Part shown: positions 1 through 48,122 of the stretch, in pieces
Numbering within the stretch: position 1 is the stretch's first letter
Layout of the letters: every line of letters begins with the position of its first letter
NCBI GenBank assembly: GCA_963663475.2
Contig: CAXXJV010000002.1
Location: 128,001-192,000 of the forward strand
Direction: 5' to 3'
From: Candidatus Cloacimonadales bacterium
GTDB lineage: Bacteria; Cloacimonadota; Cloacimonadia; Cloacimonadales; JAFGVF01
DNA: 64,000 bases
Translations under genes and position numbers: made by a program
The notes under the pieces: generated by a model
The model's input: only the letters and a program-made list of their open reading frames with translations
Databases searched by the model: none
What the model was told of the DNA's origin: nothing

Positions 1-498
1 AAACTGGAAATGCACAAAAGTCATTCTTGAATAGCAATATTTAAACACGCAAAAATATATCTTTTTCCGCTCTTTATTTGATAGTTTAATATAACATTCT
101 CCAGGATCTACTTGCATCTGAATCCCTGGCTTATAACTTACGACTTTGTAATATCTTTTTGTTGGTAGTTCTAAGCTCTCTTTAATTCTTTTAGAAAAAT
201 TAAAAAAACCTCTTTGACTTATCTGTAAATCTTCATAATCTCTCTTAAATATTTTGTATAATTTGCTTAGTCTCATCTTTGGATTTGATGATATTTTCTG
301 AGTTATTGCTTCTCTGTGAACTTCTAAAACACTCGGTCTTCTAACTTTTGTTAAAAGCTCTTCTACTTCATTATCAGGTACATTTAAATAGCGTAAAACA
401 GTTGTTTTAGATACTTTTAACTGCTTGGCTATATCTCTTACACTATTACCTGCTTTGCTTAACGACTTGATTGCATGATACACTTTGGCTCCTTTCAT
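1..498 (-). CDS. istA: IS21-family transposase IstA, N-terminal part (runs off the window start)
   Basis: Manual translation of the minus strand from ATG 498: MKGAKVYHAIKSLSKAGNSVRDIAKQLKVSKTTVLRYL (HTH) ... KPGIQMQVDPGE ... FKYCYSRMTFVHF. These are IstA-type motifs. Frame open to base 1; GGAG RBS upstream. Missing from the ORF track. Confidence 0.88.
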   Translation of the reverse strand, partial: MKGAKVYHAIKSLSKAGNSVRDIAKQLKVSKTTVLRYLNVPDNEVEELLTKVRRPSVLEVHREAITQKISSNPKMRLSKLYKIFKRDYEDLQISQRGFFNFSKRIKESLELPTKRYYKVVSYKPGIQMQVDPGECYIKLSNKERKKIYFCVFKYCYSRMTFVHFQF

Positions 499-9008: not shown

Positions 9009-9362
9009 TTATTTTAGTATTAATGTTTTTCTTTTGGTAACAAAACGTTTATTTTCTTTAACTTGTACAGTATAGTTACCGTTTGCTAAGAGGTTACCTG
9101 CGAAATCTGTACGATCCCATTCTAAAGTATAATCCCCTACATTAAAGAAAGTTGAAGCAATGGTAGTAACTACCTGCCCTTCCTGATTTAGTATTTCAAT
9201 AGTTAAGTGAACACCAGTGTTACAGTGAAAACTGATTATAGCAAGGTCACTTACAGCTTCAGGACTTACCTTGAAGTCACTAATATTATCAGAGCTCTTA
9301 TTACCAGCAAATAAAACAAAAGTAAATACTAATAAGCATAAAACAATTAATCTTTTTTTCAT
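9009..9362 (-). CDS. Small secreted protein made only of a FlgD-Ig/T9SS-like C-terminal domain
   Basis: Signal peptide; I.N..GQVV.TI...G.Y.LEWD..D..G..L.NG.Y; ends KRKTLILK. Confidence 0.7.
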   Translation of the reverse strand: MKKRLIVLCLLVFTFVLFAGNKSSDNISDFKVSPEAVSDLAIISFHCNTGVHLTIEILNQEGQVVTTIASTFFNVGDYTLEWDRTDFAGNLLANGNYTVQVKENKRFVTKRKTLILK

Positions 9363-9427
9363 AATTCCTCCACTAAACTCACCTTACATACGATGCATAA
9401 ATTATTCCATAAATGATTATTTTACTA

Positions 9428-11836: not shown

Positions 11837-11856
11837 AAAATGTTATCTCCGAAATT

Positions 11857-28908: not shown

Positions 28909-29649
28909 TTATTTAGTAACTGAGTAAATATTTAAAGCAAGAGAAATAGTTGCCAAAAGAGCAGTGTAGATATGCCATGGGAACTCTCGAGGTGGTGGAA
29001 CTACAATAGTATCACCTTCAAAGATAAGAAGTTGGTCTTCAGATGCTTCAACTGTATTAGAAAACCAAAGATCTCTAATTTCAACATCAAAAATCTCTCC
29101 ATTCTTCCTAATTAATCTTATCTCTTTCACATCACGAATATTTTTGATACCACGAGCTAAGGCTAGAGCATCTGTAAGTTTTAAGGGCTCATAAATTTGA
29201 TACTCACCAGGACTTGTCACATAACCAATGATATTAACCTTATGTCCATAAATTTTTTCTACATAGATAGTTACAACTGGAATAGTTACATAAGGGAGAA
29301 GTCGCTTTTCAATTAAGGCCCTTAAAGAAGAGATATTCATACCTTCAGCTCTTATATTTCCTAGTAAAGGATACTCAATACCTCCATCAGGTAAAACTCG
29401 GATAGATTGCTTTGTAAATTCAGCATGTCCCATAACTACTATAGAGATAATATCTCCCTTTTGTAGTATATATTTCTCAGTTTCAAGAACTGCTAAGGTA
29501 TCATTTGGTTCAAGGTCACTAGATATTAAGCCTCTAGCAATATCATCCTTAGTGATTACAGGAATACCTTCATTATCTTCAATCTGTGCAAAGATAGATA
29601 TCCAACTTATTACAAGCATGGCTAATATATATATTCTGAGATTCTTCAT
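28909..29649 (-). CDS. wza: Wza-like (OPX) polysaccharide export protein
   Basis: YILQKGDIISI, V.PDG.I.YPLLG.I.AEG, SLBB domain (G.V.SPG.Y, ALALA.G), C-terminal hydrophobic helix; no lipobox Cys. Confidence 0.85.
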   Translation of the reverse strand: MKNLRIYILAMLVISWISIFAQIEDNEGIPVITKDDIARGLISSDLEPNDTLAVLETEKYILQKGDIISIVVMGHAEFTKQSIRVLPDGGIEYPLLGNIRAEGMNISSLRALIEKRLLPYVTIPVVTIYVEKIYGHKVNIIGYVTSPGEYQIYEPLKLTDALALARGIKNIRDVKEIRLIRKNGEIFDVEIRDLWFSNTVEASEDQLLIFEGDTIVVPPPREFPWHIYTALLATISLALNIYSVTK

Positions 29650-29720: not shown

Positions 29721-30827
29721 TTATTGAAGCTCAAGTTTAAGATCAAGAAGTTTCTGTTGATATTCTTGAAGTTTTGTTTCCCAGTAAACTTGGCCATTAA
29801 TAGTCTTATAGATACCAGGATAAGTGAAATACTCAATTTTTCTATTCTTCATCTTCTGCACTTGTCTAGCAAGGGGAATAGCTTTTTGAACAGTTAAGTT
29901 AGTTTCTGCTTCCTTTAAAATCTGTCTGCCAATATTACTTGAGGTAAAGAAGTCTTGCTGAGTGAATTTCTTATATAACTCTAACATAAAATCTTTTTGT
30001 CTTTTTATTCTGTTATGGGAACCAGTTTTAAAGTCTATCTTACGCATATCTTTTGATATAAAGGTAATATATAGCCAAGATGTATAACCATCTATAATAT
30101 GTAATCCAGAATTAACATAATACTCCTTAGCGAAACTTTCTGGGATATCAACTTTAATACCACCTAGAAGGTCAATAAAGTTTATCCAGGCAGGTCTATC
30201 TTGACAGAAGTAGTAATCTATCTTTTTATTGGTAATAGTTTGAATACCGCTGACAAGTCCACTAGTACCTTCATAAAGATAAGTTTCGTAAAGTGTTTTA
30301 GTGCCAGAAACAGGGTCAGGTATAGCAGTAAACCAAGGAAGATGACCAGCTAAGAGTAACTCTTGTTGGGGATATATAGTTATTAAGATATAAGTACGGG
30401 GTAGTCCTGCATAGATAATGTTAATCTGAGGAAAGTCTTCCAGCTTTGGCATTTCTGGGTGTTTGACTTGTATTTCAGGTTCTTGAGGTGGGAGACTTAT
30501 TTTTTCTGGAGCTTTACAGGGGATACAGTAAACTTCCCAAGGCCTTATCTCTTTATCTAGGTTTATCTTTGAAAGGTCTGCATTCTTTTTAGCTCCTTGA
30601 GCAGACATAATAAGTTCAAAGAGGGTAGTTTTAACCTGAACTGGGTAAACACCAGGGTCATTAACACAGCCACCTATACCAGCATAAATTATATCATTTT
30701 CTCTGCTACAAGCTCGAAGAGATAATAGAATCAAAATAATGATAATAATTATCATGATAAGTGAAATAATATAAGAAGCTATTTTCCCTCTTGAGACTTC
30801 TCTGGATTTTTTTCTAGATGTCATCAT
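29721..30827 (-). CDS. Membrane-anchored SLBB + LytR/CpsA/Psr (LCP)-like protein
   Basis: N-terminal TM; GCVNDPGVY...ADLSKINL (SLBB); IDYY, FIDLLGGIKVD, RIKRQ, ETNL (LCP). Start uncertain (30824-30848). Confidence 0.75.
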   Translation of the reverse strand: MMTSRKKSREVSRGKIASYIISLIMIIIIIILILLSLRACSRENDIIYAGIGGCVNDPGVYPVQVKTTLFELIMSAQGAKKNADLSKINLDKEIRPWEVYCIPCKAPEKISLPPQEPEIQVKHPEMPKLEDFPQINIIYAGLPRTYILITIYPQQELLLAGHLPWFTAIPDPVSGTKTLYETYLYEGTSGLVSGIQTITNKKIDYYFCQDRPAWINFIDLLGGIKVDIPESFAKEYYVNSGLHIIDGYTSWLYITFISKDMRKIDFKTGSHNRIKRQKDFMLELYKKFTQQDFFTSSNIGRQILKEAETNLTVQKAIPLARQVQKMKNRKIEYFTYPGIYKTINGQVYWETKLQEYQQKLLDLKLELQ

Positions 30828-33489
30828 AATCATCATCTTCAATGTCAATGTAGTCTGATAGACCTAAGAAGTCTTTAATAATATCTTTACTCCTAGTTAG
30901 AGCATTTTTCTTCTTAACATTCTTATATGATTTTTTGCTTGGAAAAGCATTTTTTAGGGAATTATCAATATTATTAGAGCTCTCATCATCGTATTCGTCA
31001 GGTTTTTGCTTGAACCTTTTTTTCTTTTTCTTAGAACCATCTTCCAGGGTATAGTAATAATATTCATAGCTATAGGAGTAATAATCATAGTAGGCTGTAT
31101 CAAAGATATCTTTCACTATTCCATTGGCAATGAAACCTGAGCAGACGGTATTAACCATGGCTAATTTTCTGATAATTCTATTAATACTTTTAAGGGTTGT
31201 AGTATTTATTTTAGCAGTAAGCAAGGTATAATCTAAATGACTAACAAGCACAGAGGTTTCTGGGAAGTACATATAAGCTGGAGTATCGATGATAACTATA
31301 TCTGCGAAGGATTTAATAGCTTTTATATAATCTCCAAATTTATCACTATGGTAGAGTTTATTGACACTTGGAGGCAGTTTACCTGATGGTAAGATAAAGA
31401 GGTTTTCGAAACGAGTTTCAATGATAGCGTCTTCTAGGTCTACTTGTTCTGTTACTACTTCTGAGAAACCAGGTAGATTTTTGAAATCATAATAACGAGA
31501 CACTCTTGGATTATAAAAATCAGCATCTACTAGCAGTACTTTTGTATTATTTCTAGCTAAAGCAACAGCTAGGTAATTTGAGATAGTAGATTTACCTTCA
31601 CCTTTAATGGAAGAGATAATTCCAACTAGGTTATTCTCTTTGTTCATGATCATATACTTAAAGTTGAGAGCAATCTCATTAAAGACAGATAATACTGAAT
31701 CCTTTAATTGATTGTTTTCCTTAGTGTCTTTCTGAGTAAGAATATCTAAATCCATAGGACTAAAGTCAAGTTTTGGTACAAGACCTACCATAGGTATTGC
31801 CGGAAATTCTTTTTCTAAGGTTTTAACTGTTCTAATTTTGTTATCAAACATATTAAGAAGCATAGCTAAACCAAAGCCAAGACCTAGGCCTAAAATAGTT
31901 CCAATTAATAAGTTTAATTTAAGCTTATTATTAGATGGTTTAGAAGGTACAGTAGCTTGTTCTAATTGAACTATTCTATAAGCATCTATGCTAGAACTTA
32001 ATCTCATCTCACTAAGTTGAGTTTGCAAATTTATTATGATAGCACTTAAAGCATCTTTCTGTCTGTGAAGATCATTTAACAGAGAAGAAACTTCAGGGTT
32101 TAACTCCATACTCTTAATAATTCGTGCTAAAGCAATTTTCCTTTGGGAAAGAGAGATAACTTTTGTTTCTGATTTGATCAAATCTGATAGAATTTGTTGC
32201 TTTAATGGATTATTACCAACACTTTTTAATTGAACATTCTGCTCAGCACCTTCTTCAATTAAAGTGGTTATATTTGCAATATTTCTTCTGATACCAATAA
32301 CTTTAGGATGGTTTTCTCCATAGGAAGTTAAAGCTCTAGCAAGATCAACTTCGAGATTGAGAAGTCTCATTTTAAGGGGTTCACTGTAGGTTGTTTCGGT
32401 AGTATATTCCGAATCTTCTTCTTTTAATCTTTGTTTTAATGCTCGAATATTGGCATTTTCTGATTCAAGTTCAACCTCTGTACTTGAGAGTATGTCTTTA
32501 AAACTAGATAAACGCTTAAAATTATCTTCAATATCACCAGAAAAATTTTTAAAATTATGTTTTCTATAGAGATTTTCAATAGCTACATTTAGAGAATCTA
32601 ATTCCCTATTATTCCTGTCTAATTGCTCTTCTAAATAGCGGATAGTCTGAGCATAGTTATCATTTCTGATAGACATATCATAGTCATTGACTGCGTAATA
32701 GTAGTAATTAGCAATCTGGGCTGCGATATTAGGGTTTGTGTGGGTAGAAGTGAGGTTAATGACTCTTTCTTCATCTCTTAAGGTAGAGGTCTCTAGAGAA
32801 GCTTTAATAGCTCCTGGAGAAACAATTCCTTCCATATAACGAGATACTCTAGTAGCTACATCAGATGATTCGATAATCTGTATCCAAGTAGAAAGTTTCA
32901 TTTGTTCTTTAAGAACAGGTTTCTGATTAATAACTTTAAGTTCCATAATGTCATTATTAATCAAGAGTTTAGTAGTTGCCTTGTAGATAGGAGTCTGGTT
33001 TATTGAGTAAATATAGGCTGCTAAAATTAAAGCAATTGTTACTAAAATTATCATAAACTTATAACGATAAGCAATCTCTAAATAATCCATGATATTTATT
33101 TCATCTTCAAATATGTTCTTCTTAGGTGGAGCAGGGGGATAATTTGTATAGCGATTTACTTGGTCATTGTTTAGAGAAGAAGTCTGTTGATTTGAACCTG
33201 TATCTGGATTATTCACAAAATCAGTTCCATAAGAACCAATATTGGCTGGCTGATTAATTTCTAAATTAGTCTGATTAGTTACTTGCTGATTAGTTTGGTC
33301 AATATTATTGCTCTTAAGATTAGACTGTAGATCAGGAGAACCATCCTTTTTTTCACTTCTATTAACGAAAACAGATTTTTTCCCATCTTCATTTTTCTCA
33401 GAAGTAAAAGCATTTTTATCAATCTCGCTAGCTTTAGCAGCTGCTCTCATTGATCTTAATTCTGCAATAGATATTTTTTTATCTGCCAT
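30814..33489 (-). CDS. wzc: Wzc-type polysaccharide co-polymerase / BY-kinase
   Basis: Wzz-like TM-periplasmic-TM region (YGENHPKV); Walker A KGEGKST, A' LLVDAD, B IIDTP; Tyr cluster. Confidence 0.92.
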   Translation of the reverse strand: MADKKISIAELRSMRAAAKASEIDKNAFTSEKNEDGKKSVFVNRSEKKDGSPDLQSNLKSNNIDQTNQQVTNQTNLEINQPANIGSYGTDFVNNPDTGSNQQTSSLNNDQVNRYTNYPPAPPKKNIFEDEINIMDYLEIAYRYKFMIILVTIALILAAYIYSINQTPIYKATTKLLINNDIMELKVINQKPVLKEQMKLSTWIQIIESSDVATRVSRYMEGIVSPGAIKASLETSTLRDEERVINLTSTHTNPNIAAQIANYYYYAVNDYDMSIRNDNYAQTIRYLEEQLDRNNRELDSLNVAIENLYRKHNFKNFSGDIEDNFKRLSSFKDILSSTEVELESENANIRALKQRLKEEDSEYTTETTYSEPLKMRLLNLEVDLARALTSYGENHPKVIGIRRNIANITTLIEEGAEQNVQLKSVGNNPLKQQILSDLIKSETKVISLSQRKIALARIIKSMELNPEVSSLLNDLHRQKDALSAIIINLQTQLSEMRLSSSIDAYRIVQLEQATVPSKPSNNKLKLNLLIGTILGLGLGFGLAMLLNMFDNKIRTVKTLEKEFPAIPMVGLVPKLDFSPMDLDILTQKDTKENNQLKDSVLSVFNEIALNFKYMIMNKENNLVGIISSIKGEGKSTISNYLAVALARNNTKVLLVDADFYNPRVSRYYDFKNLPGFSEVVTEQVDLEDAIIETRFENLFILPSGKLPPSVNKLYHSDKFGDYIKAIKSFADIVIIDTPAYMYFPETSVLVSHLDYTLLTAKINTTTLKSINRIIRKLAMVNTVCSGFIANGIVKDIFDTAYYDYYSYSYEYYYYTLEDGSKKKKKRFKQKPDEYDDESSNNIDNSLKNAFPSKKSYKNVKKKNALTRSKDIIKDFLGLSDYIDIEDDDYDDI

Positions 33490-33492: not shown

Positions 33493-34326
33493 TTACTGCC
33501 CATTGTTTTCTAAATCTTGAAAGACAATTTCTACTAAGTCTTTATCGATAAGTTTGATAGATTCCATAGAGGCTATATCCATGGATATTTTGCAAACTCG
33601 GTTAATTTCTCTTGGAATTCCGTTAGTTTTAGCATGGATTAAGTTTCTTGCTTCAGGAGAAAAAACATGGCTTTCTGCACCTGCTATCTTTAATCTATGC
33701 TGAATATATTTACTAGTCTCATTTGCTGAAAGATGGGAAAGATGGTAACGCATACCTATTCTTTGGTTGACTTGAGGTAACTTTTCAACATTTTTAATTA
33801 AAGATGGTTGACCTATCAAGATGATAATAATTGGACTATCAAAACCAAAGGTTATATTGGTTAAATCTTTTAAATAATCAAGGTCTCGAGAGGCAATTTT
33901 CTGAGCTTCATCAAATAAAAGAAAGAGTCTATTATTTGAGCTATTGAGTTTTTTTTCTAGAAGTTTTCTTAATTTAATTTCTAAAGAATATCTACGGGAA
34001 GGTAGGTTATCAGGGTCTTCTTTAGTTAGCTGATAGAGGGTTTCTTTCATTATCTCAGCAAAACTGTAGGAAGTAGAATTGATATTAACAAGCATGTTGT
34101 CAGGATTTTCTGTTTTTAAAGATTCAATAAGAACTAGTTTTGTAATAGTTTTTCCTGTGCCTACATCACCACTCAGCATTCCCATATTCATAGAACCTGA
34201 TTCTGTAACGTAATGCAGACGTTCTAGTGCTTCTAAATGGTCAGAACTTTTATAGTAAAATCTTGGGTCGTTGTTATCCTGAAAAGGAGGGATTTTTAAG
34301 TTCCAAAAGGAATAATAATCTATCAT
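33493..34326 (-). CDS. ExeA/GspA-type AAA+ ATPase
   Basis: YYSFWNL..PPF...DPRFYY.S..H.EAL, GDVGTGKT, LFDEAQ, LIGQP, QRI, GIPREIN. Confidence 0.9.
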   Translation of the reverse strand: MIDYYSFWNLKIPPFQDNNDPRFYYKSSDHLEALERLHYVTESGSMNMGMLSGDVGTGKTITKLVLIESLKTENPDNMLVNINSTSYSFAEIMKETLYQLTKEDPDNLPSRRYSLEIKLRKLLEKKLNSSNNRLFLLFDEAQKIASRDLDYLKDLTNITFGFDSPIIIILIGQPSLIKNVEKLPQVNQRIGMRYHLSHLSANETSKYIQHRLKIAGAESHVFSPEARNLIHAKTNGIPREINRVCKISMDIASMESIKLIDKDLVEIVFQDLENNGQ

Positions 34327-35015
34327 TAGCTTTCCTCTTTTCTCTGTTTGCTAAGTTTAATCTCAACTCTTCTATTCTTTTCTCTATTTATTTCAGTATC
34401 ATTTGGGGCAATAGGTTTAAATTCTCCATAGCCCATAATCTGCAATTGATCAGCAGAAAAATAATTATTTCTTAAGAAAAATTTAACTATACTAAGAGCT
34501 CTTGCTGTTGATAGCTCCCAGTTAGAAGCATACTTAGTAGTTGATATGGGAATATTATCAGTATGACCTTCTATTCTAATACTCCAACTGTCGCCGTCAT
34601 CAATTATGCTTTGTATTTCTTTAGCAATATCTAAAAGAGTGGACTGTGAGTTCCATTTTAAATCTGCCTTACCACTTTCAAACAAAATTTCTCCTGGAAT
34701 GGAAATAACTTTTTCATTGAGGTCAGAAACTTCTTCATAGAGAGTTGAATCAACTGCTACTTCATTTTCTGATAGTATCTTCTGGGCTTGCTGATCAGCA
34801 ACATTTTGCCAGCCTATTTCAGTGTCTTTTATTAAATAGAAAAAAACAAAGAATATTAAGAGAAGGGTCATCATATCAGAGTAGGGAACTAAGCTCACAT
34901 AAAAACCTGAAAAATCACTCTCAGGGCTGTCAAAATCTTGCCCTTTATGCTGATCTTCTGCAATATCATATTTGTTAGTCTTGATTTTATCCCTATCCTT
35001 TAAAGAATTAAACAT
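34326..35015 (-). CDS. motB: MotB/PomB stator subunit
   Basis: TM PYSDMMTLLLIFFV with the conserved Asp; OmpA-like domain EGHTDN, NWELSTARA, GYGEFKP, NRRVEI. Confidence 0.92.
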   Translation of the reverse strand: MFNSLKDRDKIKTNKYDIAEDQHKGQDFDSPESDFSGFYVSLVPYSDMMTLLLIFFVFFYLIKDTEIGWQNVADQQAQKILSENEVAVDSTLYEEVSDLNEKVISIPGEILFESGKADLKWNSQSTLLDIAKEIQSIIDDGDSWSIRIEGHTDNIPISTTKYASNWELSTARALSIVKFFLRNNYFSADQLQIMGYGEFKPIAPNDTEINREKNRRVEIKLSKQRKEES

Positions 35016-35745
35016 AAATCTTTTCTAGACCTGCTTTAATCAATTCTGAGTTCTTTTTGTTCATAATTCCGATTACACCTTCAATGATAATTTTCCTACT
35101 CATAAAGGAATATTCAGCCTTGCTGGCTAGTTTACCTGACATAGGTCTGAAGATAACAACAGATATAATTAGTCCATAAAGGGTAGTAACTAAGGCCAAA
35201 CTCATGGCTTTAGGAATGACTGTTGGGTTGGTAATATTTCCTAACATAGCAATCAAACCAATAACTGTTCCTATCATTCCAAAGAGAGGGGCAATATTAC
35301 TGGCAACTGAAAATATTTTAGCTGAATTCTTATGCTTATTCAAAATAGAATAAGATTCTTTTTCTAATAATCTGGGTATTTCTTCGGCAGGAAGATTATC
35401 AGTAATTAACTTTAAAGCATTTCTAAAAAATGGTAACTTCTGAACTTCATCGTAGTCCATGATTTCCTTGATAGTAACAGAACGAGAATCTTTACTAATG
35501 GAAACTATAGTATCTACTAGGTCATCATGACTATATTGATCTTGTGGGTTACTATGAAAGAAGTCCTTTAGAGCTCTCATAAGAGAAGTAGCTGAATAAG
35601 TGCTTATTAAAGATGTAATGGTTCCACCAAAAGTTACCAAAAGAGCTATGGGATCCAAATAAGAACTAAGGTCTCCTTTATTATTAATAGCAATAAAGAG
35701 TATTAAAACACAGAGAAACCCACCAATAAAAGTAGAAATTTTCAT
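35008..35745 (-). CDS. motA: MotA/PomA stator subunit
   Basis: 4-TM MotA layout: LLVTFGGT, APLFGMIGTVIGLIAML, ALVTTLYG, IIIEGV. Confidence 0.92.
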   Translation of the reverse strand: MKISTFIGGFLCVLILFIAINNKGDLSSYLDPIALLVTFGGTITSLISTYSATSLMRALKDFFHSNPQDQYSHDDLVDTIVSISKDSRSVTIKEIMDYDEVQKLPFFRNALKLITDNLPAEEIPRLLEKESYSILNKHKNSAKIFSVASNIAPLFGMIGTVIGLIAMLGNITNPTVIPKAMSLALVTTLYGLIISVVIFRPMSGKLASKAEYSFMSRKIIIEGVIGIMNKKNSELIKAGLEKIYV

Positions 35746-35757: not shown

Positions 35758-37140
35758 TTAATAGTTTAGTATATAACGTATTTTTTGAAGTGAATGATTT
35801 ATAATTTTTTCAGCTTCATCTTCTTGAATTTTACCGATTACTTCCATATCTTCTTTAAGAATAATAACAGCTCTTTCTGATAATTGAGAGAAAAACTTCT
35901 GCCTAATATTATCTGGCAAGCATTTAAGGAACTGTACCATTTCTAAATGACTAAACTCACTGTTAATCTGCTCAATTTGGACATTCTTGAGATTTAAAAT
36001 ATCATCCATTAGGAATATTTTCTGTTTAACTTGCTCAGCAATTTCTGGTTTTAACTCTTTTAACTTGTTGAAAAGAGTTTGGGCTACACTCAATGAAGAA
36101 GAATTGATAAAGTTTATCATTGTCTTCACATTGTTAATTTTAACAGGATTTTTATCAAGGGCTTCCAGATACTTCTGATACATTCCAACAACCATAATTT
36201 TCATGTCTAATTGCAGAATATTTTCCATCTCTATTATATGTTTCAAGACTTCATCAATAGATCCATCATAAAATTTGAAAAAGTAATCGACCTTACTAGC
36301 TTCAACCTGTGTCAAGATTAAAGCGATTTCACGAGGATTCTCGTTTTTCACAATAGAGAGAAAATTACTGTTAGATAATTCATTAAGGAAATCAAGATTG
36401 GTATTCTCAGCCTCATCATCATCCTTGAGTAATTTTACCTGTAGAGGTTTATTTGAACCTCCTGAAAGCTGATTATTTGCAGCTGATTCTGCACTTTTGA
36501 ACATTTGAAAATCTCTAGTTTCCCCTAACTTTAGCTGGTCAAGGTTAGATATCTTTATTCTTCTTAGGGACTTAGCAATGATTCTTGTTGAATTTCTAAT
36601 ATTATTAATTATCAACATAGCTAAAAGAAAAGCTATGAGTAATAATACGTTTCTAAAATTAAAGAGGGAAGAACTAGCACTAGTAACCAGGGGTAGGTCT
36701 GCTCTAATAGATACTTGGTCCTGAGTTACTAATTCTTGGGAAGAAGTGTTTATGACGATTTCTTCAATCTCTTTAAGTAGCTCTTCTTTAGTGTCTTCTG
36801 GAACCCGCACCATAATCGATAATTTTGTTATTTCAGTAGGTGCATAGTCGCTTAGATCTATGTTAGGCATTGAAGAATCACTCTTACCAACTGGTAATCC
36901 TGGTAGACTTAATTTCTCATCAAGTCTTAAATTACCTTGGTTTGACTCAAATAGATTATACTTTAAATCTAAATCTACAAAGACAATCGCTCTATCAACA
37001 AAAATACTTAAATTTTTCTCTATTCTCTCAGCTAACTCATTTTCTGCCTTTATTTCTCCTAGCGAGTTTTTAGGAGTTGCTGTCAGTAGTGTGTTAGTGC
37101 AAAAGAATAGTGCTAAGATTAATCCAATATATGATTTCAT
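35758..37140 (-). CDS. FliF-RBM-like / TM / FliG middle+C-terminal fusion protein
   Basis: Signal peptide from ATG 37140 (AGGGG RBS); TM NVLLLIAFLLAMLII; FliG motifs ENPREIALIL, PEIAEQVKQKIFLMDDI, SQLSERAVIILKEDME. Confidence 0.8.
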   Translation of the reverse strand: MKSYIGLILALFFCTNTLLTATPKNSLGEIKAENELAERIEKNLSIFVDRAIVFVDLDLKYNLFESNQGNLRLDEKLSLPGLPVGKSDSSMPNIDLSDYAPTEITKLSIMVRVPEDTKEELLKEIEEIVINTSSQELVTQDQVSIRADLPLVTSASSSLFNFRNVLLLIAFLLAMLIINNIRNSTRIIAKSLRRIKISNLDQLKLGETRDFQMFKSAESAANNQLSGGSNKPLQVKLLKDDDEAENTNLDFLNELSNSNFLSIVKNENPREIALILTQVEASKVDYFFKFYDGSIDEVLKHIIEMENILQLDMKIMVVGMYQKYLEALDKNPVKINNVKTMINFINSSSLSVAQTLFNKLKELKPEIAEQVKQKIFLMDDILNLKNVQIEQINSEFSHLEMVQFLKCLPDNIRQKFFSQLSERAVIILKEDMEVIGKIQEDEAEKIINHSLQKIRYILNY

Positions 37141-37751
37141 TAAACTTACCCCTATTGTGGCAAGAATGAGAAATAAGCTAATTTTGGCAAGCACTTTTTT
37201 TTATAATCTTTATAATTCTGCAAAATTTGCATGTTTATGGTTATTATAAACTCAAAATGTCTCCCAAAAATAATGTTAAAATAATATAGTAAAATGTAGA
37301 TTATATCTATGTTAAACAGAAAGATAAGCTGAATATATAGAAATGAAATACTTATCTAAATTAGCAAAATGTCTTCTAAAAGTATCCATTTAGAAGGGAG
37401 ATTAATATTTTCTATACAATCTGCAAATTTAAGAGTCTATTTCCTAATAAACCCTAATATTGCTAGAGAATTTAGCCAATGTACTTATTTCTAATATTCT
37501 ACTATTTTCCCCGAGCTTACAGTCTGAATTTTTCTTTTAAGGAGTCTATCCTAACCAGCGAGTATTCAATGAATAATACATAAATTAATGCAAATAATTA
37601 AGTCTTAATTTTCATTATCCAACAAAGATACTACCAGTAAAAATATAGTGACAATACAAAGATAAATTCATTGATAAAAAAAACTGTTAATTCTTTCTTC
37701 TAGTAATGTGCCTATGGCTCACCTGTGTTTTGTTTCCCTTAGCCATGACTA

Positions 37752-37814
37752 ATCCTTCCTTTACAGTCTTTCGATGAAAGTCCAGGTTTCATCGAAAGAC
37801 TGTAAAGGAAGGAT
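37752..37814. repeat. Perfect 28 bp inverted repeat with 7 nt loop, repeat B copy 2
   Basis: Arms identical to 1172-1232; loop gtccagg. Confidence 0.95.
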
Positions 37815-38058
37815 CAAGGATGAACCAAGGGTAAAAAACATAATTTCGGAAGGTGAAAATCATTTTAAAGCAATATAAAAACATGTTTATAATTTGCTAG
37901 TTAAAAAATATTTAATATAACTACTATAAATCTACAAAAATAAAATAAATTAAAAATAATCAAGAAATGCAAGCAGAATATTCTCTTGAATCCTATTTTT
38001 TTATTGACTATGATGCTTGTCTAAATATTATCAGCCCATAAATCATAGGAGCACTTTA

Positions 38059-41000
38059 ATGAAGTTATTTATAGCTAAAAATAAGACTATTCTTGTACTT
38101 GCTTATCTCTTAATGTTTGCTACTTTTCTCGCTGGAAACAAGCAGTTTGATCTAAACAGTTGGCAAGGAAACTATAATGTTAAAGGGAAAAATGCTTTTG
38201 ATCAATTTGGTTATCAAATTATGTCTGGTGACTTTAATGGCGATGGAATTGATGATATTATTGCCTCAAGTCCTTCAGCTGATCCATTAGGTAGAAACTC
38301 TGCAGGAGAAGTCTATATTTTTTGGGGTAATGAACAGAGTGAACAGTCTGTCAACATAGATTTAAGTTCTGCTACTGCAGATGTAACCATTATAGGGGCA
38401 GCAAGTGGAGACAAACTAGGCTACTCAATAGCTACCGGATCCTTTAATGGTGATAGCTATAGAGATTTTGCTATATCAGCTCCTTATAGCAATAATGGGC
38501 AGACTCTCCAAACTGGTTCTGTTTACTTATTTTATGGAGGCACAAATCTAGCAGGGACTATTGATTTAAGTATCGATACAGCCCAACACCACTTTCTGGG
38601 ACAAACAACAAATGATTATCTCGGGCAAGAATTAATCTTTACAGACCTTAATAATGACAATAAGGATGAATTAGTAATTTCTGCTCCTGAAGGAGATAAA
38701 GCAGAACTTAATAATTGTGGTTTGGTTTATCTTATATGGTCTCATGAAAGTTATGGACAAACAGTTAATTTATCACAAGCTAGTAATATTTCATTTTTGG
38801 CTGGTTTGTCTATTAATGATAATTTAGGACGATCCCTAGCAAGTGCCAATATTAATAATGATCTTTTTCAAGACTTACTTTTAGGAGCTCCTGGAGTTGA
38901 TGAGGAGAGTCTGATAAATAACGGGAGTGTATATCTTCTTAAAGGGCGGACTTTCTTTCCTTATGGGGAAATATCCCTAGTTAATGATAATTTTATTGAA
39001 ACTGAAATTAAGGGAGGCTTTCATTCCTCAAATTTAGGAAGGACTATGGCTGCTGGTGATATTAATGGAGATGGATTTGGAGATATTAGTCTAAGTGATT
39101 TTTCTCAAAATAGCGCTTCTAATCTGGTTTATATCGTCTATGGAAGCAATTCTCTAGCTAGCTCAATGAGCCTTAACGATGAATCAGCTAATATAAAGAT
39201 ATCTCATCAAGGAATCTCAGATAATTTATTTGCAACAAATCTCTTTATTGGTAATGTAAATCAAACCAGTCCCGAAGATTTAATAATTTCTTCTCCTCAG
39301 GCTTTTTCCAATAATGGTAATGAAAGTGGCTTAGTACATGTTCTTTATGGAAGAAATCAGTTTGAAACAAGCTATGATTTAGCACTAGATTCTTACGATG
39401 AGATATATCATGGACAGGTAGCTAATGCAAATTTGGGTTCTGCTCTAGCTTTAGCTGATTTTAACAATGACCTTAAAACAGATATATTCCTAGGTTCAAT
39501 CAATGCAGGTAATACTAAAGGTTCTCTTTATGGAGTCTATGGAGGAATACCATGGGCCTGGAACCTACTGCCAACTGACGGAGCAAGCAATGTTGATATT
39601 GATCAAGCAATAGCTTTTTCCTTGTCTGATGACCAGCAAATAGACTTAAACTCTCTTAATGTTAATATTGCTGGAACAGCTTATGATATCAATTCTAATA
39701 ATCTCTCCTATAGTGGTTCTGGAAACTTTTATAGGATAACAATTGTACCAGAAGCCTATTTTGGTTATAATCAGATAATCAATGTAAGTATTCAAGCAAG
39801 TGATAATGAAGGTTGGCAGATACCAACAAGCAATTATAGATTTTTTACTAGAGAAGATACTGATCCACCCTTTACTAACCAATGGTTACCAGCTCCTGAC
39901 CAACAAGGAGTTCCAATTGATACTAATATTGAATTTAATGTCTATGATTTAGGAGAAGGGGTTAATCTATCCTCAATTATCGTTAATATTGATGGAACAA
40001 ACTACTATTCTGGTTCTCCTTACTTCTCTCACTTAGGGCAAGTTAATAATTTTAGAATTATAGTTAATCCACCAGACAACTTTTCTTTTGGACAAGAAGT
40101 TTTTGTTACAATTGATTGCCAAGATTTAGCTCCCCTCCCTAATTCTATGTCCACCTTTAGTTATTCATTTATATGTGGACAGGATAACTCAGCTCCATCA
40201 ATTATTGTGATTGAGCCTAGTTATGGGGAAGAGGTGGCCAGAACTAATATCTTATCTGTTGAGGTAGCTGATAGTGAATCAAATCTTAACCAGAACTCCT
40301 TAATCTTTAGACTAGATAATGAAAATATCTTACCATTCTCAGATATTCAAACTCTTAGTAATGGCAATCTAAAAGTTACTTATAATCCTTTAGAAAATCA
40401 GTTATTAACTTATGGACAAAGAGAGATTTATTTTTATGTGGAAGATGCTTCAACTAATGCTAATAGTATTGATACAACTTCTGTTTTTACTGTGATAGCA
40501 GATAATCAAGCCCCCTATACAGCTAATCATTTCCCAGAAAAGTTCTCTGTAGATAATCCAACTAATAGCCAATTTAAGATTGATGTTTTTGATTTGCTCA
40601 GTGGTATCGATCTTACAACTTTATCAATAAAAATTAATGATGTAGAAATTAGTCTCAGTGAAACTACTTCAATATCTGCCCTCAATAATGGATATAGGGT
40701 CATTTATAACCCACCTGAAAGACTTGTGGGGGAGGTATCGGTAGAAGTTCAAGTAAGCGACTTAGAAAATCCAGCTAATACCATGCCTTTAGAAAGCTAT
40801 ACATTTACAACTTCTTTAGATGAAGATGCTCCTTATATTAGTGATTTGTATCCTGAGGAAGGGGCGGTTAATATACCCATAGATGCTAATCTTTCCTTTA
40901 AACTTTATGATGATAAAACAGGGGTAGATAGGTCGTCTATCCAAGTTTTAATAAATGATAATGATGTTAGCCAAGATTTGAATATTGCTACTATTTCAGG

Positions 41001-42723
41001 AGGCTTTGATCTTCTTTACCTGATAGATTACCCTTATGATTTTAATGAGCTGGTAAGTGTCTTTATCAAGTGTTCAGACTTAGAAGAACCAGCTAATTTT
41101 TACGAAAACAGCTATACCTTTAGAGTAACCCCTGACCTAGAAGCTCCTTACTTAGTTAACTTATTGCCTGAGGCTAATGCAAGTGGTGTTGCCGTTGATA
41201 GCGGTGTTTATTTCGAAATCCATGATAATGGTATAGGTATTGATATTGCAAGTCTTGTAATGAAGGTTAATAATGAAAATGTAGTTCCTGAAACTAGTCA
41301 AATTCCTGAAACTATGTTTTATGAGGTTTTTTATAGTGGCCAAGATTTTGAATATGGTCAAGAAGTAAGAGTGCTTGTATCTGTGGATGATTTAGCTACT
41401 AATCCTAATAGCTTAACTAATTTTAACTATAGTTTTACAGTAGTTGATGATGACCAAAGTCCACCAATTTTTACAGGACTAACCCCTGCTGAAGATAGTA
41501 GTGATAACCCTGTGAATACTTCTATATCAATGTCAATAATTGATACAGAATCTGATGTTGATCAGAATTCAATAATATTTAAAATTAATAACACTAGTAT
41601 TGAAGACTATCAGCTTACTCCTCTACAAACAGAAGAAGGGTTTGGTTATAAATTAAACTATCAACCTCAAATCCCTTTTGCATATGGAGAAATAGTCAGG
41701 ATTCAAATATATGCTATGGATACTTCGAGTAATAACAATGCTTCAAATAAATCATATTCTTTTACTTGCCAAGAAGATAATCAAGCTCCTTATCTAGAAA
41801 TATCAACTCCAGCCGATGGCGGTCAAGGTTATGCTAATTCTATTCTATACCTTTCCCTAAAAGATGATCTATCTGGTATTGATGATGATAGCTTCTCCCT
41901 GATCATTAATGGAGATTTTATTACTGCCTATCAAGATTCCTTACATGATAACCGCTTAGAAGTCTGGTATTCAACCCAATCTTTCTTTGCTAATGAAAGT
42001 GTAGCTGTGGACTTTTCTGTATCTGATAATGTAGGTAATACTTTCGAAGATTCTTATAGCTTTGATATTATTCCAGATATTTACCCACCTTATTTTGTTA
42101 TGGAGAAACCAGAAGATAATTCAGATCTTGCTATTTATGATTATTTAGAAATAGCAATCTTGGATAAGGGCGTTGGCATAGAAGAAGAATCTATTTCTTT
42201 TATGTTAAATGGGAGAATTATTGAAAATTATCATTTAGATAGAGATACTTATAATAGTAATCCAGATTCCCTAGGATTCATCCTCAAATATCAGATTGAT
42301 GATACTTATTATCCTGGTCAGAATCTTGCTATCCAGATTTCAGCAAATGATAAAAATCAACCACAAGCTCTTCAAAATATGCAAGAATATAATATTTTTG
42401 TTGAGAGGGCTTTAGCTCAAGATAAGGTGGAAGTTATACCTAATATAATTTCACTCAATTTTGATGGTATTAACGATTATAGCAGGATTATTATTCCTAG
42501 TAGAGCTAAAGTTTCGTGTAAGATATTTACTAGGGCAGGAAAGGAAATACGAGACCTAGCCACAAGTGTCTATCAAGTACAAGGTGATTCTGATAAGCAA
42601 TATCAAGTTGCTATTTGGGATGGTAAAAATTCAGATAATAAAGCTGTCAATGCAGGTATTTATATCTGCCAAGTTAAGTATGGAAGTAAGGTCCATAGAA
42701 ACACTATAACGGTGGCGAAGTAG
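38059..42723 (+). CDS. Large surface adhesin-like protein: 7 FG-GAP repeats + 9 Ig-like repeats + type-B/FlgD-like CTD
   Basis: Seven (G)DxNxD motifs; nine ~105 aa D..AP...P......D...G.D..S repeats; C-terminal IPNIISLNFDGIND...WDGKN...AGIY. Start at ATG 38059 after AGGAG. Confidence 0.85.
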   Translation: MKLFIAKNKTILVLAYLLMFATFLAGNKQFDLNSWQGNYNVKGKNAFDQFGYQIMSGDFNGDGIDDIIASSPSADPLGRNSAGEVYIFWGNEQSEQSVNIDLSSATADVTIIGAASGDKLGYSIATGSFNGDSYRDFAISAPYSNNGQTLQTGSVYLFYGGTNLAGTIDLSIDTAQHHFLGQTTNDYLGQELIFTDLNNDNKDELVISAPEGDKAELNNCGLVYLIWSHESYGQTVNLSQASNISFLAGLSINDNLGRSLASANINNDLFQDLLLGAPGVDEESLINNGSVYLLKGRTFFPYGEISLVNDNFIETEIKGGFHSSNLGRTMAAGDINGDGFGDISLSDFSQNSASNLVYIVYGSNSLASSMSLNDESANIKISHQGISDNLFATNLFIGNVNQTSPEDLIISSPQAFSNNGNESGLVHVLYGRNQFETSYDLALDSYDEIYHGQVANANLGSALALADFNNDLKTDIFLGSINAGNTKGSLYGVYGGIPWAWNLLPTDGASNVDIDQAIAFSLSDDQQIDLNSLNVNIAGTAYDINSNNLSYSGSGNFYRITIVPEAYFGYNQIINVSIQASDNEGWQIPTSNYRFFTREDTDPPFTNQWLPAPDQQGVPIDTNIEFNVYDLGEGVNLSSIIVNIDGTNYYSGSPYFSHLGQVNNFRIIVNPPDNFSFGQEVFVTIDCQDLAPLPNSMSTFSYSFICGQDNSAPSIIVIEPSYGEEVARTNILSVEVADSESNLNQNSLIFRLDNENILPFSDIQTLSNGNLKVTYNPLENQLLTYGQREIYFYVEDASTNANSIDTTSVFTVIADNQAPYTANHFPEKFSVDNPTNSQFKIDVFDLLSGIDLTTLSIKINDVEISLSETTSISALNNGYRVIYNPPERLVGEVSVEVQVSDLENPANTMPLESYTFTTSLDEDAPYISDLYPEEGAVNIPIDANLSFKLYDDKTGVDRSSIQVLINDNDVSQDLNIATISGGFDLLYLIDYPYDFNELVSVFIKCSDLEEPANFYENSYTFRVTPDLEAPYLVNLLPEANASGVAVDSGVYFEIHDNGIGIDIASLVMKVNNENVVPETSQIPETMFYEVFYSGQDFEYGQEVRVLVSVDDLATNPNSLTNFNYSFTVVDDDQSPPIFTGLTPAEDSSDNPVNTSISMSIIDTESDVDQNSIIFKINNTSIEDYQLTPLQTEEGFGYKLNYQPQIPFAYGEIVRIQIYAMDTSSNNNASNKSYSFTCQEDNQAPYLEISTPADGGQGYANSILYLSLKDDLSGIDDDSFSLIINGDFITAYQDSLHDNRLEVWYSTQSFFANESVAVDFSVSDNVGNTFEDSYSFDIIPDIYPPYFVMEKPEDNSDLAIYDYLEIAILDKGVGIEEESISFMLNGRIIENYHLDRDTYNSNPDSLGFILKYQIDDTYYPGQNLAIQISANDKNQPQALQNMQEYNIFVERALAQDKVEVIPNIISLNFDGINDYSRIIIPSRAKVSCKIFTRAGKEIRDLATSVYQVQGDSDKQYQVAIWDGKNSDNKAVNAGIYICQVKYGSKVHRNTITVAK

Positions 42724-42731: not shown

Positions 42732-44210
42732 ATGAGAAAAATCAATTTTAACCAATTAATATTACTTGCTTTCCTCTTACCTGTCATTACACTTAACTCC
42801 TTTGATTTTCAACAAGGAGGAATTAGGAACTACAGTCTTGGAGGAACAGGTATTGCTTCTTCTGAAGACTTATCTGCTTCTGTTTATAACCCTGCTTTAT
42901 TAGCAAATAGACAGCTTGAATTCCTAACTGACTCAAGAATCTATCTCTATGATTTAGAAAATGATGATTTGACTTATAACTTTTTCTCTTTTGCCTTTCC
43001 TTTAGCTTCTCTGGGAACTACTGCCTTTTCTGGAGATGTATTCTCTGCAAACCTCTATCAGGAAGTTAGGGCTGGTTTCCACTGGGGATCTTCCTTCTTT
43101 AACTCCCTTATGGAAGTTGGATTTGGCTTGAATTATTATAATATTTCTTATGAATCAAACGAGTTTACTCTTAATGATCCACTTTTTATTAATAATGAAA
43201 ACTCTAGTTCAGCTCTAGATTTAGATTTAGGAGCTGGATTTAATCTTAATGAAAGACTCAAACTTGCTCTTGTAGCTAAAAATATTCTGGCTAGTGATTT
43301 AGCCCTTGATTCTGAAAATGAAGAGAAATTAAATAGAGACTTGGGTATTGGAGTAAATTATAATATCTCTCCAAAAATTACCCTCATGATGGATGCTAAA
43401 TTAACCCAGAACTCTACTTTAGAAGAAAATGAATACTTTTATGCTTTAGCTAGTGAGTATCGCTTGCTAGATGGCTTTACTATTAGAACAGGACTCAATA
43501 ATAATGAAATAACTTCAGGATTTGGCTTTAAACTTATTGAAAAAAATTATGTTAAGTCTTATCGCAATCCTTTCAATTCTAAGAGGATGATAGAGAGTAG
43601 GTCTTTACGCTTATCTCTTGATTATGCCTTCTCTTACCCTCTTTTCACAGACTTAGAAATTCCTTATGGAAATCACTTCTTAGGACTCAGTTTTCAGCTT
43701 GGTTCATCAAATTCTTGGGAAGATGATCTAAAAAACCATGTTCAACCTAAAATTGAGACTTCAATATTAGAAGTACCTGTAAGAGCTAACTTAGAATCTG
43801 CTAAACCTCAAGTTCTTATTGATACTATTTATGTTGAGAAGTTAGTGAGAGATACTGTATTCGTAATTGATACTTTAGAAGTTATGGTAGGGGTTAGTCA
43901 AGATGATTATGTTAAGAAGCTTCAAGAGTTGGATGTGGCTAAATCAAGAATAGAAACCTATAAGACTAATAATCAAGCCTTAATACACTTGATGAATGCT
44001 ACTAACCTTTTCTACAATAGCCAATTAGAATCTGCTGCTCAAGAATGTATTCAAGCTATTAAACTGGCTCCAGATATGGCCTTAGCATATATAAAATTAG
44101 GGTCTATCTATTATCGGCAAGGGAAACAAGATCTAGCTATTAAAAATTGGAGAAAAGCTAAGGAATTAGATCCTAATAATCCTGAGATAAAAGCAATTTT
44201 CAAAGAGTAA
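42732..44210 (+). CDS. PorP/SprF- or PorV-like outer-membrane beta-barrel with C-terminal coiled coil/TPR
   Basis: G.R..SLGG...A...D.SA.VYNPA.L, LDLG, RTG, LDYA, HFLGLSF; C-terminal TPR (KAKELDPNN). Confidence 0.7.
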   Translation: MRKINFNQLILLAFLLPVITLNSFDFQQGGIRNYSLGGTGIASSEDLSASVYNPALLANRQLEFLTDSRIYLYDLENDDLTYNFFSFAFPLASLGTTAFSGDVFSANLYQEVRAGFHWGSSFFNSLMEVGFGLNYYNISYESNEFTLNDPLFINNENSSSALDLDLGAGFNLNERLKLALVAKNILASDLALDSENEEKLNRDLGIGVNYNISPKITLMMDAKLTQNSTLEENEYFYALASEYRLLDGFTIRTGLNNNEITSGFGFKLIEKNYVKSYRNPFNSKRMIESRSLRLSLDYAFSYPLFTDLEIPYGNHFLGLSFQLGSSNSWEDDLKNHVQPKIETSILEVPVRANLESAKPQVLIDTIYVEKLVRDTVFVIDTLEVMVGVSQDDYVKKLQELDVAKSRIETYKTNNQALIHLMNATNLFYNSQLESAAQECIQAIKLAPDMALAYIKLGSIYYRQGKQDLAIKNWRKAKELDPNNPEIKAIFKE

Positions 44211-47300: not shown

Positions 47301-48122
47301 GATGATAACGACCATAATCGCCAGATTATTGAAAAGAATCTTAATCATTGGGGAATTAATTATCTTAGTGCTAACTCAGGCCAAGAAGCCTTGGATATTC
47401 TTGCTAAGGATAATGAGATAGATTTAGCTATTTTTGATTTAATTATGCCAGGAAAGGATGGAATAGAAAGTATTAGGGAGCTAAGACAAAGATTTGATAA
47501 CTATAAAAATCTACCAATAATCCTCCTTCATAGCTCTGTAGAGGATAAAAAAATCAATCAAGAAGCACAAAACTTGAATATTGCTCACAAAATGGTAAAA
47601 CCACTTAAAGCAAAAGAGTTGAAAGAACTTATCTTCTCAATATTTGAAGATAATTCTCGTAACATAATTAAGCTCTCTGCTAAATCTTATGAACCAACCA
47701 CTTATACTCTTGATAAGGGTAAACAGAAGGTCCTTATAGCTGAAGATGTGGAGTTAAATTTAGTCTTAATTAAAACTATCATTAAAAAGGCTATTCCACT
47801 GGTAGAGACAGTTACTGTAGTCAATGGTCAGGAAGCAGTAGATGTCTTTAAAAAGAACAAGTTTGATTTAGTTTTAATGGATGTTCAAATGCCTGTTATG
47901 GATGGACTACAAGCTACTAAAATTATCAGAACTTTAGAAAAAACAAGAGATCATAAAACACCTATATTAGCTTTAACAGCTGGGGCAACTAAAGAAGAAA
48001 CTAGAAAATGCCTTGAAGCTGGTATGGATGAAATAGTTACAAAACCTATTGACCAAGAAAAACTAAGATCTATTTTAGATAAACTACTTAAACCCAATAA
48101 TGCAGTAGATCTTTGTGAATAG
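44307..48122 (+). CDS. Hybrid sensor histidine kinase (periplasmic SBP, 2 PAS, GAF, HisKA/HATPase, 2 receivers)
   Basis: [28 protein letters not shown], two receiver domains (DLIMP, DVQMP). Confidence 0.95.

Follow-up and report, generated by a model that had tools for sequence, protein, structure and literature searches.

A FliF-RBM3-like domain fused to FliG and encoded beside MotA and MotB in Cloacimonadota: probable rotor of a flagellum-independent envelope machine

We analysed a 64,000-nucleotide stretch of the genome of a Candidatus Cloacimonadales bacterium (assembly GCA_963663475.2, contig CAXXJV010000002.1, positions 128,001 to 192,000 of the forward strand; hereafter the window, with coordinates counted from its first letter). 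Our subject is a gene on the reverse strand that an earlier note, made from the sequence alone, had described as a natural single-chain flagellar rotor. Its product joins a domain resembling ring-building motif 3 (RBM3) of the MS-ring protein FliF, via one transmembrane helix, to the middle (M) and C-terminal (C) domains of FliG, and the genes for a MotA/MotB stator pair follow it directly. We favour, with moderate confidence, the interpretation that this gene encodes the rotor subunit of an envelope machine which is driven by MotAB and independent of the flagellum; judged from the neighbouring genes, the machine probably handles a giant surface protein. The gene and its parts are as follows.

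35758..37140, reverse strand (stop codon 35758-35760): rotor gene, 460 amino acids (aa), comprising leader, RBM3-like domain, transmembrane helix, linker and FliG M and C domains
36664..37065, reverse strand: domain in the periplasm resembling FliF RBM3, residues 26-159, containing a short insert (AlphaFold2 (AF2) model, Foldseek, VIA-align)
36586..36654, reverse strand: single transmembrane helix, about residues 163-185, then an Arg/Lys-rich stretch (translation; helix 162-197 in the AF2 model)
35761..36399, reverse strand: FliG M and C domains, residues 248-460; R423, E430 and D431 lie in their torque helix (Pfam, NCBIfam, PDB profile, Foldseek on the full model)

The longest open reading frame of the gene spans 35758..37194 on the reverse strand and would yield 478 aa from a GTG start; the ATG at 37140, the coordinate used in the earlier note, yields 460 aa. 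A search for relatives (E <= 1e-3) returned 26 proteins, comprising 20 that are full-length, two fragments and four that match the FliG half only. All but one of the full-length relatives are 443-461 aa long (19/20), the remaining one (99% identical) having 478 aa, and an alignment of 18 relatives starts at the Met of the 460-aa form. The ATG at 37140 fits both the lengths of the relatives and the start of the alignment. The strings on which the original description was built (ENELAERIEKNL, AIVFVDLDL, EITKLSIMVRV, LLKEIEEIV, DQVSI, ENPREIALIL, IFLMDDI and SERAVIILKEDME) are all present in the translation. The protein begins with a hydrophobic leader whose Cys is not conserved in the 18-relative alignment, making it unlikely on this evidence that the rotor protein is a lipoprotein.

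The C-terminal half is the more readily recognised of the two in sequence searches. Pfam FliG_C matches the rotor protein with 57.6 bits (E 1.8e-15, cut-off 23.3), whereas MgtE_N, which had been raised as a competing assignment, reaches 18.7 bits and stays under its own cut-off, placing the C-terminus closer to FliG. In the 478-aa form, residues 264-463 correspond to positions 109-308 of the 338 in the NCBIfam FliG model TIGR00207. When a profile of the 18 relatives was run against PDB sequences, the matches included FliG of A. aeolicus (3hjl, E 6e-30, query 252-458 on chain residues 113-320, which correspond to M and C) and the M and C domains of T. maritima FliG (1lkv, E 1.9e-29); FliG accounts for 14 of 20 listed chains, and the remaining six have E > 0.2. 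In the alignment to 3hjl, ENPREIALIL falls on EHPQTIAL in the EHPQ region, IFLMDDI on MFTFEDI in the MFxF region and SERAVIILKEDME on SKRAAKLFLEDME in the torque helix, such that the three strings read as FliG motifs in the earlier note do lie at homologous positions. R423, E430 and D431, aligned to the torque helix of both 3hjl and 1lkv, are invariant in 18/18 aligned relatives, as is E433; the Arg and the acidic pair of the torque helix have therefore been kept. The FliM-binding EHPQR motif has degenerated, with ENPRE, EDPTE, ETPED, ENNDN or ESDDN at the aligned position and E267 as the only one of its residues that is invariant. At the position of the Gly-Gly hinge, the window's clade has INN and more distant relatives have IEG or LEG. 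Pfam finds no FliG_N domain in the rotor protein and the TIGR00207 alignment begins only at model position 109, in agreement with the predicted absence of this domain. The label 'MS-ring + C-ring' given to the protein is accordingly right as to the fusion and overstated as to the C-ring, of which the FliG M and C domains alone are present.

The N-terminal half was identified mainly by its fold. The periplasmic part (about 135 aa in all) has the order helix, strand, a poorly predicted insert of about 42 residues, strand, helix, strand in both AF2 models. Searched with Foldseek, the N-domain model returned FliF RBM3/S-ring chains from Salmonella and Vibrio at ranks 1-17 (TMq 0.49-0.56), with PrgK and OsmC-like folds coming after them; the Vibrio FliFG S-ring (8z4d/8z4g) is among the best structural matches. 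Comparison with 48,161 representatives by VIA-align, in which unmatched models typically give Z 7-8, also placed FliF at ranks 1-3 (Z 12.8, 12.2 and 10.8), the top match being 6scn_A (93 residues aligned to FliF 235..438, root-mean-square deviation 2.4), and the next families were PrgK domain 2 (Z 8.9) and SpoIIIAG (Z 8.7). The domain thus has an RBM fold whose nearest relative is FliF RBM3, with a short insert at the site of the beta-collar, much as had been proposed. Within the insert, the motif SLPGLPVxK (residues 78-86) is invariant in two alignments, of 15/15 and 18/18 sequences, and aligns with NVPGTP of P0094, a true FliF. The Pfam model YscJ_FliF, which covers RBM1 and RBM2, has no match on the rotor protein.

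A profile of the N-domain searched against 1.84 billion representative sequences matched 72 proteins (E <= 1e-3), nearly all of 440-540 aa with the domain at residues ~25-160. One of them is P0094, matched inside its RBM3 (E 9.6e-4). A Pfam scan of 66 family members (65 of the 72 together with the window protein, seven fragments below 300 aa having been left out) found FliG_C in 61, FliG_M in 34 and YscJ_FliF_C in 13; of the YscJ_FliF_C scores inspected, those of fused members stop a little short of the cut-off, which is exceeded only by P0093, an unfused protein, and by P0094, the true FliF. NCBI gives one family member the name 'FliG C-terminal domain-containing protein [Candidatus Omnitrophota bacterium]'. 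Three longer members (P0076, P0087 and P0089, 619-701 aa) have two tandem FliG_C stretches each, and P0076 comes from a Candidatus Omnitrophota bacterium by its NCBI name.

Between the two halves lies a single hydrophobic helix (about residues 162-190), evident in both the translation and the AF2 model, followed by a linker of about 50 residues (198-246) that is disordered in the model. The full-length AF2 model (predicted local distance difference test score, pLDDT, 69) retrieves both parents with Foldseek: FliG at ranks 1-13, FliF at ranks 14-29 and 31-32, and FliG again at ranks 30 and 33. Sequence profiles, models and structure searches therefore agree that the proposed architecture is correct: an RBM3 domain with a collar stub, one transmembrane helix, a disordered linker and FliG M and C. 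Oligomer predictions for four N-domain copies gave 0.39, 0.36 and 0.39, the mark being 0.42 and the controls standing at 0.00; we count them neither for nor against ring assembly.

The earlier picture of the protein's architecture stands, yet it left out the adjacent MotA and MotB genes and the giant and outer-membrane partners, which decide what the protein is for. The neighbouring genes are listed below.

35008..35745, reverse strand: MotA/PomA-type stator A subunit, 245 aa (MotA_ExbB E 5e-25)
34326..35015, reverse strand: MotB-type stator B subunit, 229 aa, with plug, transmembrane helix bearing the invariant Asp47 and OmpA-like peptidoglycan-binding domain (Pfam MotB_plug, OmpA)
33493..34326, reverse strand: ExeA-like/PEP-CTERM-locus-type AAA ATPase in the same operon string (AAA_22; TIGR03015 E 1.2e-41, below cut-off)
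30814..33489, reverse strand: Wzz chain-length determinant fused to a P-loop domain of the bacterial tyrosine kinase (BY-kinase) type (Wzz, GNVR, AAA_31)
29721..30848, reverse strand: SLBB and LytR_cpsA_psr (LCP) protein (Pfam)
28909..29649, reverse strand: short Poly_export/SLBB protein, a Wza-like outer-membrane polysaccharide export (OPX) protein (Pfam)
26126..28891, reverse strand: 921-aa protein, last gene of the co-directional string (no Pfam or NCBIfam match)
38017..42723, forward strand, divergent from the rotor gene: giant surface protein, 1568 aa, with FG-GAP repeats, Big_5 Ig-like domains and a CHU_C tail of type B for a type IX secretion system (T9SS)
42732..44210, forward strand: outer-membrane barrel resembling PorV/PorQ/PorP, fused to C-terminal tetratricopeptide (TPR) repeats, 492 aa (TPR families, OMP_b-brl)

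The two genes after the rotor are of the flagellar kind. The MotA neighbour matches the MotP, PomA and MotA models of NCBIfam with E 1e-43 to 1e-37 (MotP 1e-43, PomA 5e-39), and over residues 3-240 its best PDB matches are flagellar, namely C. sporogenes MotA (6ysf, E 2.4e-30) and PomA (5e-28); both neighbours miss every NCBIfam equivalog cut-off. The MotB Asp is invariant in 15/15 sequences, and position 88 of MotA is Arg in 11, Lys in one and His in three of 15. On these sequence grounds the pair qualifies as a flagellar-type stator, with a MotA_ExbB core bearing a long cytoplasmic loop and a MotB that combines plug, Asp-containing transmembrane helix and OmpA-like domain. On the other side of the rotor gene, the giant protein matches CHU_C with 28.1 bits (cut-off 27) at residues 1474-1556, and the barrel-TPR protein matches PorV_fam with E 1.1e-9 and 38.4 bits, below the cut-off of 90.

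We scanned genome contigs for further copies of the rotor and found 17 loci in metagenome-assembled genomes of Cloacimonadota and Neomarinimicrobiota. Two of these, L019 and L022, proved to be ordinary FliGs with an N domain and were ruled out as family loci. The genes for rotor, MotA and MotB are directly consecutive in every locus that holds downstream DNA (14/14), and a homologue of the 492-aa barrel-TPR protein is nearby in 13/14. In 11/14 loci the ExeA-like ATPase, Wzz-BY-kinase, SLBB-LCP and short OPX genes are found no more than 10 kb from the rotor; their place differs between lineages, being after MotB in Cloacimonadales and before the rotor in Neomarinimicrobiota. In L016 and L018 the operon order is giant protein, barrel-TPR, rotor, MotA, MotB, with an unrelated tRNA methyltransferase gene next in L016, and the barrel-TPR homologue of L018 matches T9SS_PorP_fam (E 4e-6, below cut-off).

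A metagenome scan seeded with a nine-sequence alignment of a distant group of ~500-aa proteins added six loci, three of them long enough to read. All three (3/3) encode rotor, MotA, MotB, a giant-protein homologue of 1546-1560 aa and barrel-TPR. These giant proteins are 25% identical to that of the window along their length and share its FG-GAP/Big_5/CHU_C make-up; the rotors of the group can be aligned with the window protein by tblastn only in pieces (18-34% identity), and the flanks are unrelated. In L035, where the flanking genes are likewise unrelated (CoaE upstream and a sigma-54 regulator downstream), the giant-protein homologue also ends in a type-B CHU_C tail and the barrel-TPR homologue (28% identity over residues 20-492) matches PorP_SprF with 24.1 bits (cut-off 22.3). 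Because L016, L018 and the metagenome loci keep only rotor, MotA, MotB, giant protein and barrel-TPR together, these five genes are the conserved unit and the polysaccharide genes are a lineage-specific addition.

The system is found without a flagellum. The genome from which the window comes (3.3 Mb, two contigs, 99.24% complete) has a single FliG_C match, which is the rotor gene, and searches of it for FHIPEP/FlhA, YscJ_FliF, Flagellin_N and FliMN_C gave no match, control genomes being positive each time; the lack of FliM/FliN claimed at the outset therefore holds for the genome, in so far as FliMN_C would report it. A second, weak N-domain match in the same genome (C1:1219273-1219458) lies within a PAS/HisKA/receiver hybrid kinase and was treated as chance. 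Across the phylum, the N-domain occurs in 47/232 Cloacimonadota genomes (31/151 of those of high quality) and FlhA in 24/232, and the two coincide only in G118, G119 and G121. One of these, G118, has genes for a canonical FliF, for FlhA and for a FliG of 349 aa at other sites, besides the one for the fused protein. Four further carrier genomes, two from each of Neomarinimicrobiota and Cloacimonadota and with no completeness given, have no FlhA match. Because 44/47 carriers have no FlhA match while three carriers also possess FlhA, the rotor system is separate from the flagellum and is not its relic.

Some Cloacimonadota have a duplicated rotor gene, with copies in G144 about 4 kb apart (C42:19669-20049 and 24078-24458); two N-domain matches per genome were seen also in G150, G152, G188, G191 and G132.

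For the FliG M and C region, a maximum-likelihood tree built with a quick method (82 of 93 rows, unrooted, with thin sampling of canonical proteins) places the window protein in a starred clade of 39 rows made up of fused proteins only, from Cloacimonadota and Neomarinimicrobiota. The 12 flagellar FliGs, of which six come from Cloacimonadota and two from Neomarinimicrobiota, form a group elsewhere (Shimodaira-Hasegawa-like approximate likelihood ratio test 90, not starred). Left out of the tree, having fewer than 150 profile positions or no match, were P0049, P0058, P0061, P0065, P0071, P0073, P0074, P0088, P0093, P0094 and the L034 protein. From these sequences we infer that the fused rotors are an old lineage separate from the flagellar FliGs, the tree giving no direction of descent. 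Two proteins of ~510 aa that are named flagellar motor switch protein FliG (P0025 and P0026) have M and C at residues ~270-480 and group with the fused P0085, not with canonical FliGs; they may be family members whose N-domain goes undetected by the profile.

An unfused relative was found in Neomarinimicrobiota. The N-domain profile gave two strong and 30 weak matches in 251 genomes of this phylum, and the weak ones examined (3/3) are proteins of ~525 aa that match YscJ_FliF_C at residues ~48-220 with 30.8-35.2 bits (cut-off 23.8) and do not match YscJ_FliF. In G423 (contig C46, positions 7146-12611, L041) such a protein is encoded in a cluster comprising a TPR/YfiO-like protein, a 460-aa protein ending in TPRs, MotA, MotB, the RBM3-only FliF-like protein and a 310-aa FliG. 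The FliF-like protein (525 aa) has a coiled coil, a late transmembrane helix and a Pro-rich tail, and the FliG has all three domains (N, M and C). After the cluster comes an unrelated lyase gene, and the cluster has no other flagellar gene adjacent; L039 and L040 are further unfused examples. Of the five genomes checked, G423 and G439 have canonical FliF and FlhA on another contig and G461, G469 and G476 have neither. The fused rotor appears to be one version of a broader class of mini rotor-stator modules.

How the parts might work together can be pictured from their flagellar counterparts. Many copies of the rotor protein would assemble into an inner-membrane ring, in the way that RBM3 does in FliF, presenting an S-ring-like crown of RBM3 domains with a beta-collar stub to the periplasm and a ring of FliG M and C domains, attached via one transmembrane helix and a flexible linker, to the cytoplasm. 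In the C-ring of the flagellum, the M and C domains of adjacent FliG subunits can stack on each other. The covalent link would stand in for the contact between the FliF tail and FliG_N. The stator would be held to peptidoglycan by the OmpA-like domain of MotB, and ions would pass via its invariant Asp while the stator pushes on the charged torque helix (R423, E430, D431) and turns the ring. No CheY-type switching is expected because FliM and FliN are absent, the EHPQR motif is degenerate and the hinge glycines are missing from the window's clade; rotation may be unidirectional, as had been suggested. On the periplasmic side, the SLPGLPVxK loop of the crown would contact the TPR part of the barrel protein, which would hold or handle the giant protein delivered by the T9SS, and the motor would move, turn or mount that protein. 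In the window's lineage the output may run also through the co-operonic Wzz/OPX polysaccharide export set.

In its fullest form this would become a rotary envelope machine, of an old lineage parallel to flagellar FliF/FliG and spread over several phyla, in which MotAB turns the ring and, by way of a PorP-like barrel-TPR adaptor, the ring drives a giant T9SS-type protein, with gliding-like movement, rotation or active display as the result. We put this forward tentatively and with less confidence than the assignment of the rotor itself. If it is true, the locus serves as a living example of the capacities of a pre-flagellar or stripped-down rotor-stator pair.

Several results weigh against these interpretations. 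On the structural side, the N-domain model was built from 15 sequences and is of middling confidence (pLDDT 70.9), and its Foldseek E-values against FliF are modest (2.9e-4 to 4.7e-3). On the sequence side, a HMMER search of PDB sequences with the N-domain profile found no FliF, only chance-level matches to salivary proteins, and Pfam YscJ_FliF_C has no match on the window protein; sequence support for the RBM3 identity is weaker than the structural support while pointing in the same direction. In the FliG half, FliG_M scores 15.1 bits, under its cut-off of 25, and TIGR00207 scores 76 bits, far below its equivalog cut-off of 226.7. The acidic partner residues of MotA are kept in the near clade only. 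The giant proteins of L016 and L018 are of other make-up (Big_9/cadherin/PKD), and we identified no rod-like or other part that would carry torque across the periplasm. The weakest step is the link of the motor to the barrel-TPR and giant proteins, for which gene neighbourhood is the evidence.

In an alternative reading, the rotor and stator might act as a force transducer for secretion or anchoring, without continuous rotation and in the manner of ExbBD-TonB or PorLM, energising the barrel so that the T9SS translocon lets go of the type-B giant protein, which is then mounted on the surface. Such a role would suit the CHU_C type-B tail of the giant protein, the resemblance of the barrel to PorV/PorQ/PorP and the presence of the translocon SprA in the same genome. 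Also in line with it, GldM and GldL models have no significant match in this genome and GldM has none in 232 Cloacimonadota genomes, though these blanks are unvalidated as the controls were silent too. Moreover, SprA is present in 5/5 sampled genomes of family f3 and neither the N-domain nor the rotor occurs in any of the 98 genomes of that family (0/98), and a conserved torque helix paired with a flagellar-type stator suits a rotary drive and exceeds what a TonB-like pull would require. We therefore regard the transducer as unlikely, though it is the strongest of the competing explanations.

The f3 counts also rule out the idea that the rotor is the general T9SS motor of the phylum. As a lead only, the finding of SprA with GldM and GldL unmatched (again with silent controls) raises the thought that the phylum's T9SS may use an unrecognised motor.

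Less probable again is that the rotor and stator energise polysaccharide export, driving or gating the Wzz-BY-kinase/OPX/LCP pathway. The association is seen in two phyla and two gene orders, with the ATPase, Wzz-BY-kinase, SLBB-LCP and OPX genes close by in 11/14 loci, and in the window these genes trail MotB with overlaps or short gaps. Against this, they are absent from the 10-kb flanks of L016, L018, L032, L034 and L035, where only the five core genes persist, and we know of no Wzx/Wzy-type pathway that needs an ion-driven motor. That the gene is a decaying, functionless remnant of a lost flagellum or an alternative rotor of a real one can be largely set aside: loss within the phylum is plausible, FlhA being present in 24/232 genomes, and according to a 2025 survey 11% of non-motile species have rotor proteins but lack those of the filament (PMC12199754), but the relatives have open frames and invariant functional residues down to 27% identity, the five genes keep the same order in distant lineages, the fused protein coexists with canonical FliF, FliG and FlhA in G118, no other flagellar gene is present in the 99%-complete genome, and the fused proteins branch apart from the flagellar FliGs of their own phylum.

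The MotAB-driven rotor favoured here can be set beside several known systems. It shares with the flagellar motor's core (FliF MS-ring, FliG and MotA5B2/PomA5B2) the RBM3 fold, FliG M and C with the torque helix, a flagellar-type MotA and a MotB with plug, Asp and OmpA-like domain. It differs in being one polypeptide rather than two and in having no RBM1, RBM2, FliG_N or FliF tail and only a stub of the collar; FlhA, YscJ_FliF, flagellin and FliMN_C have no match in this genome, and it is accompanied instead by a barrel-TPR protein and a giant protein with a T9SS tail. To our knowledge, FliG with MotAB has been described only as the flagellar torque generator.

The nearest published case is the natural FliF-FliG fusion of Chlamydiaceae, a protein of ~330 aa with RBM2, one RBM-like stretch and a FliG_M-like region only, which is discussed in relation to the injectisome (Bergeron 2016, PeerJ, PMC4768692). 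It too is a shortened FliF joined naturally to FliG, in organisms not thought to be flagellated, but it comes without a stator (PMC4768692), whereas the protein described here has an RBM3-like domain, both FliG M and C and a dedicated MotAB. Engineered or spontaneous FliF-FliG fusions of Salmonella and Vibrio are also known (PMC4768692; PMC11481574). They indicate that a covalent link of the kind seen here is compatible with ring formation; they contain full-length FliF within a complete flagellum, while the present fusion is natural and minimal and the rest of the organelle is absent.

In Bacteroidota gliding, the adhesin SprB is paired with the PorP-like SprF. The T9SS/gliding apparatus of that phylum resembles the present locus in a genetic tie of an inner-membrane ion motor to a giant protein with a type-B C-terminal domain and to a barrel, which here may be of PorP/SprF type. 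The motor here is FliG with MotAB, not GldLM, and the barrel carries its own TPR domain.

Full-text searches, which did not cover subscription journals or supplementary files, turned up no account of a FliF-RBM3/FliG fusion that occurs with MotAB outside flagella. New here are also the combination of barrel and TPR in one protein in Cloacimonadota and Neomarinimicrobiota, the link to polysaccharide genes, the unfused variant and the counts of co-occurrence with flagella. In a 2025 stator phylogeny, flagellar-type stators form one clade tied to FliG (PMC12505986), and a 2026 preprint goes no further than placing Cloacimonadota among the phyla with high flagellar gene loss (PMC13277936). The 2025 survey, in ISME J, asks what rotor proteins do in non-motile species, a question which this locus makes testable (PMC12199754).

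A stand-alone and conserved rotor-stator pair, occurring either without a flagellum or beside one, would mean a second use of the flagellar motor core, with a bearing on the origin or re-use of the MS-ring/FliG/stator unit. In Cloacimonadota and Neomarinimicrobiota it would connect a motor of flagellar type with surface proteins of T9SS type. A rotor made of one protein may also be easy to express for structural and single-molecule work.

Some further features of the window deserve mention. The barrel-TPR gene is followed by one for a 1271-aa hybrid sensor histidine kinase/response regulator (44307-48122, forward strand), and a sigma-54 response regulator stands at the corresponding place in L035; these genes may reflect local regulation of the module. 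Promoter and terminator scans gave sites no more frequent than in shuffled sequence, and across the whole window no Rfam family attained its gathering score, nor was a c-di-GMP riboswitch found. The divergent spacer between the rotor and giant-protein operons contains a perfect hairpin (37754-37812) with a stem of ~31 bp and a loop of 7 nucleotides (-64 kcal/mol, z -12.8), and this long hairpin is the cause of the only matches in the region 37100-38100, which are sub-threshold and to plant microRNAs. An identical copy of it lies 36 kb away at 1173-1231, and the hairpin has the look of a palindromic element repeated in the genome. For the 921-aa protein at 26126-28891, language-model look-alikes are named TolB family or WD40/PD40, which we take as a lead only; the protein is conserved beside the OPX gene in L006-L011.

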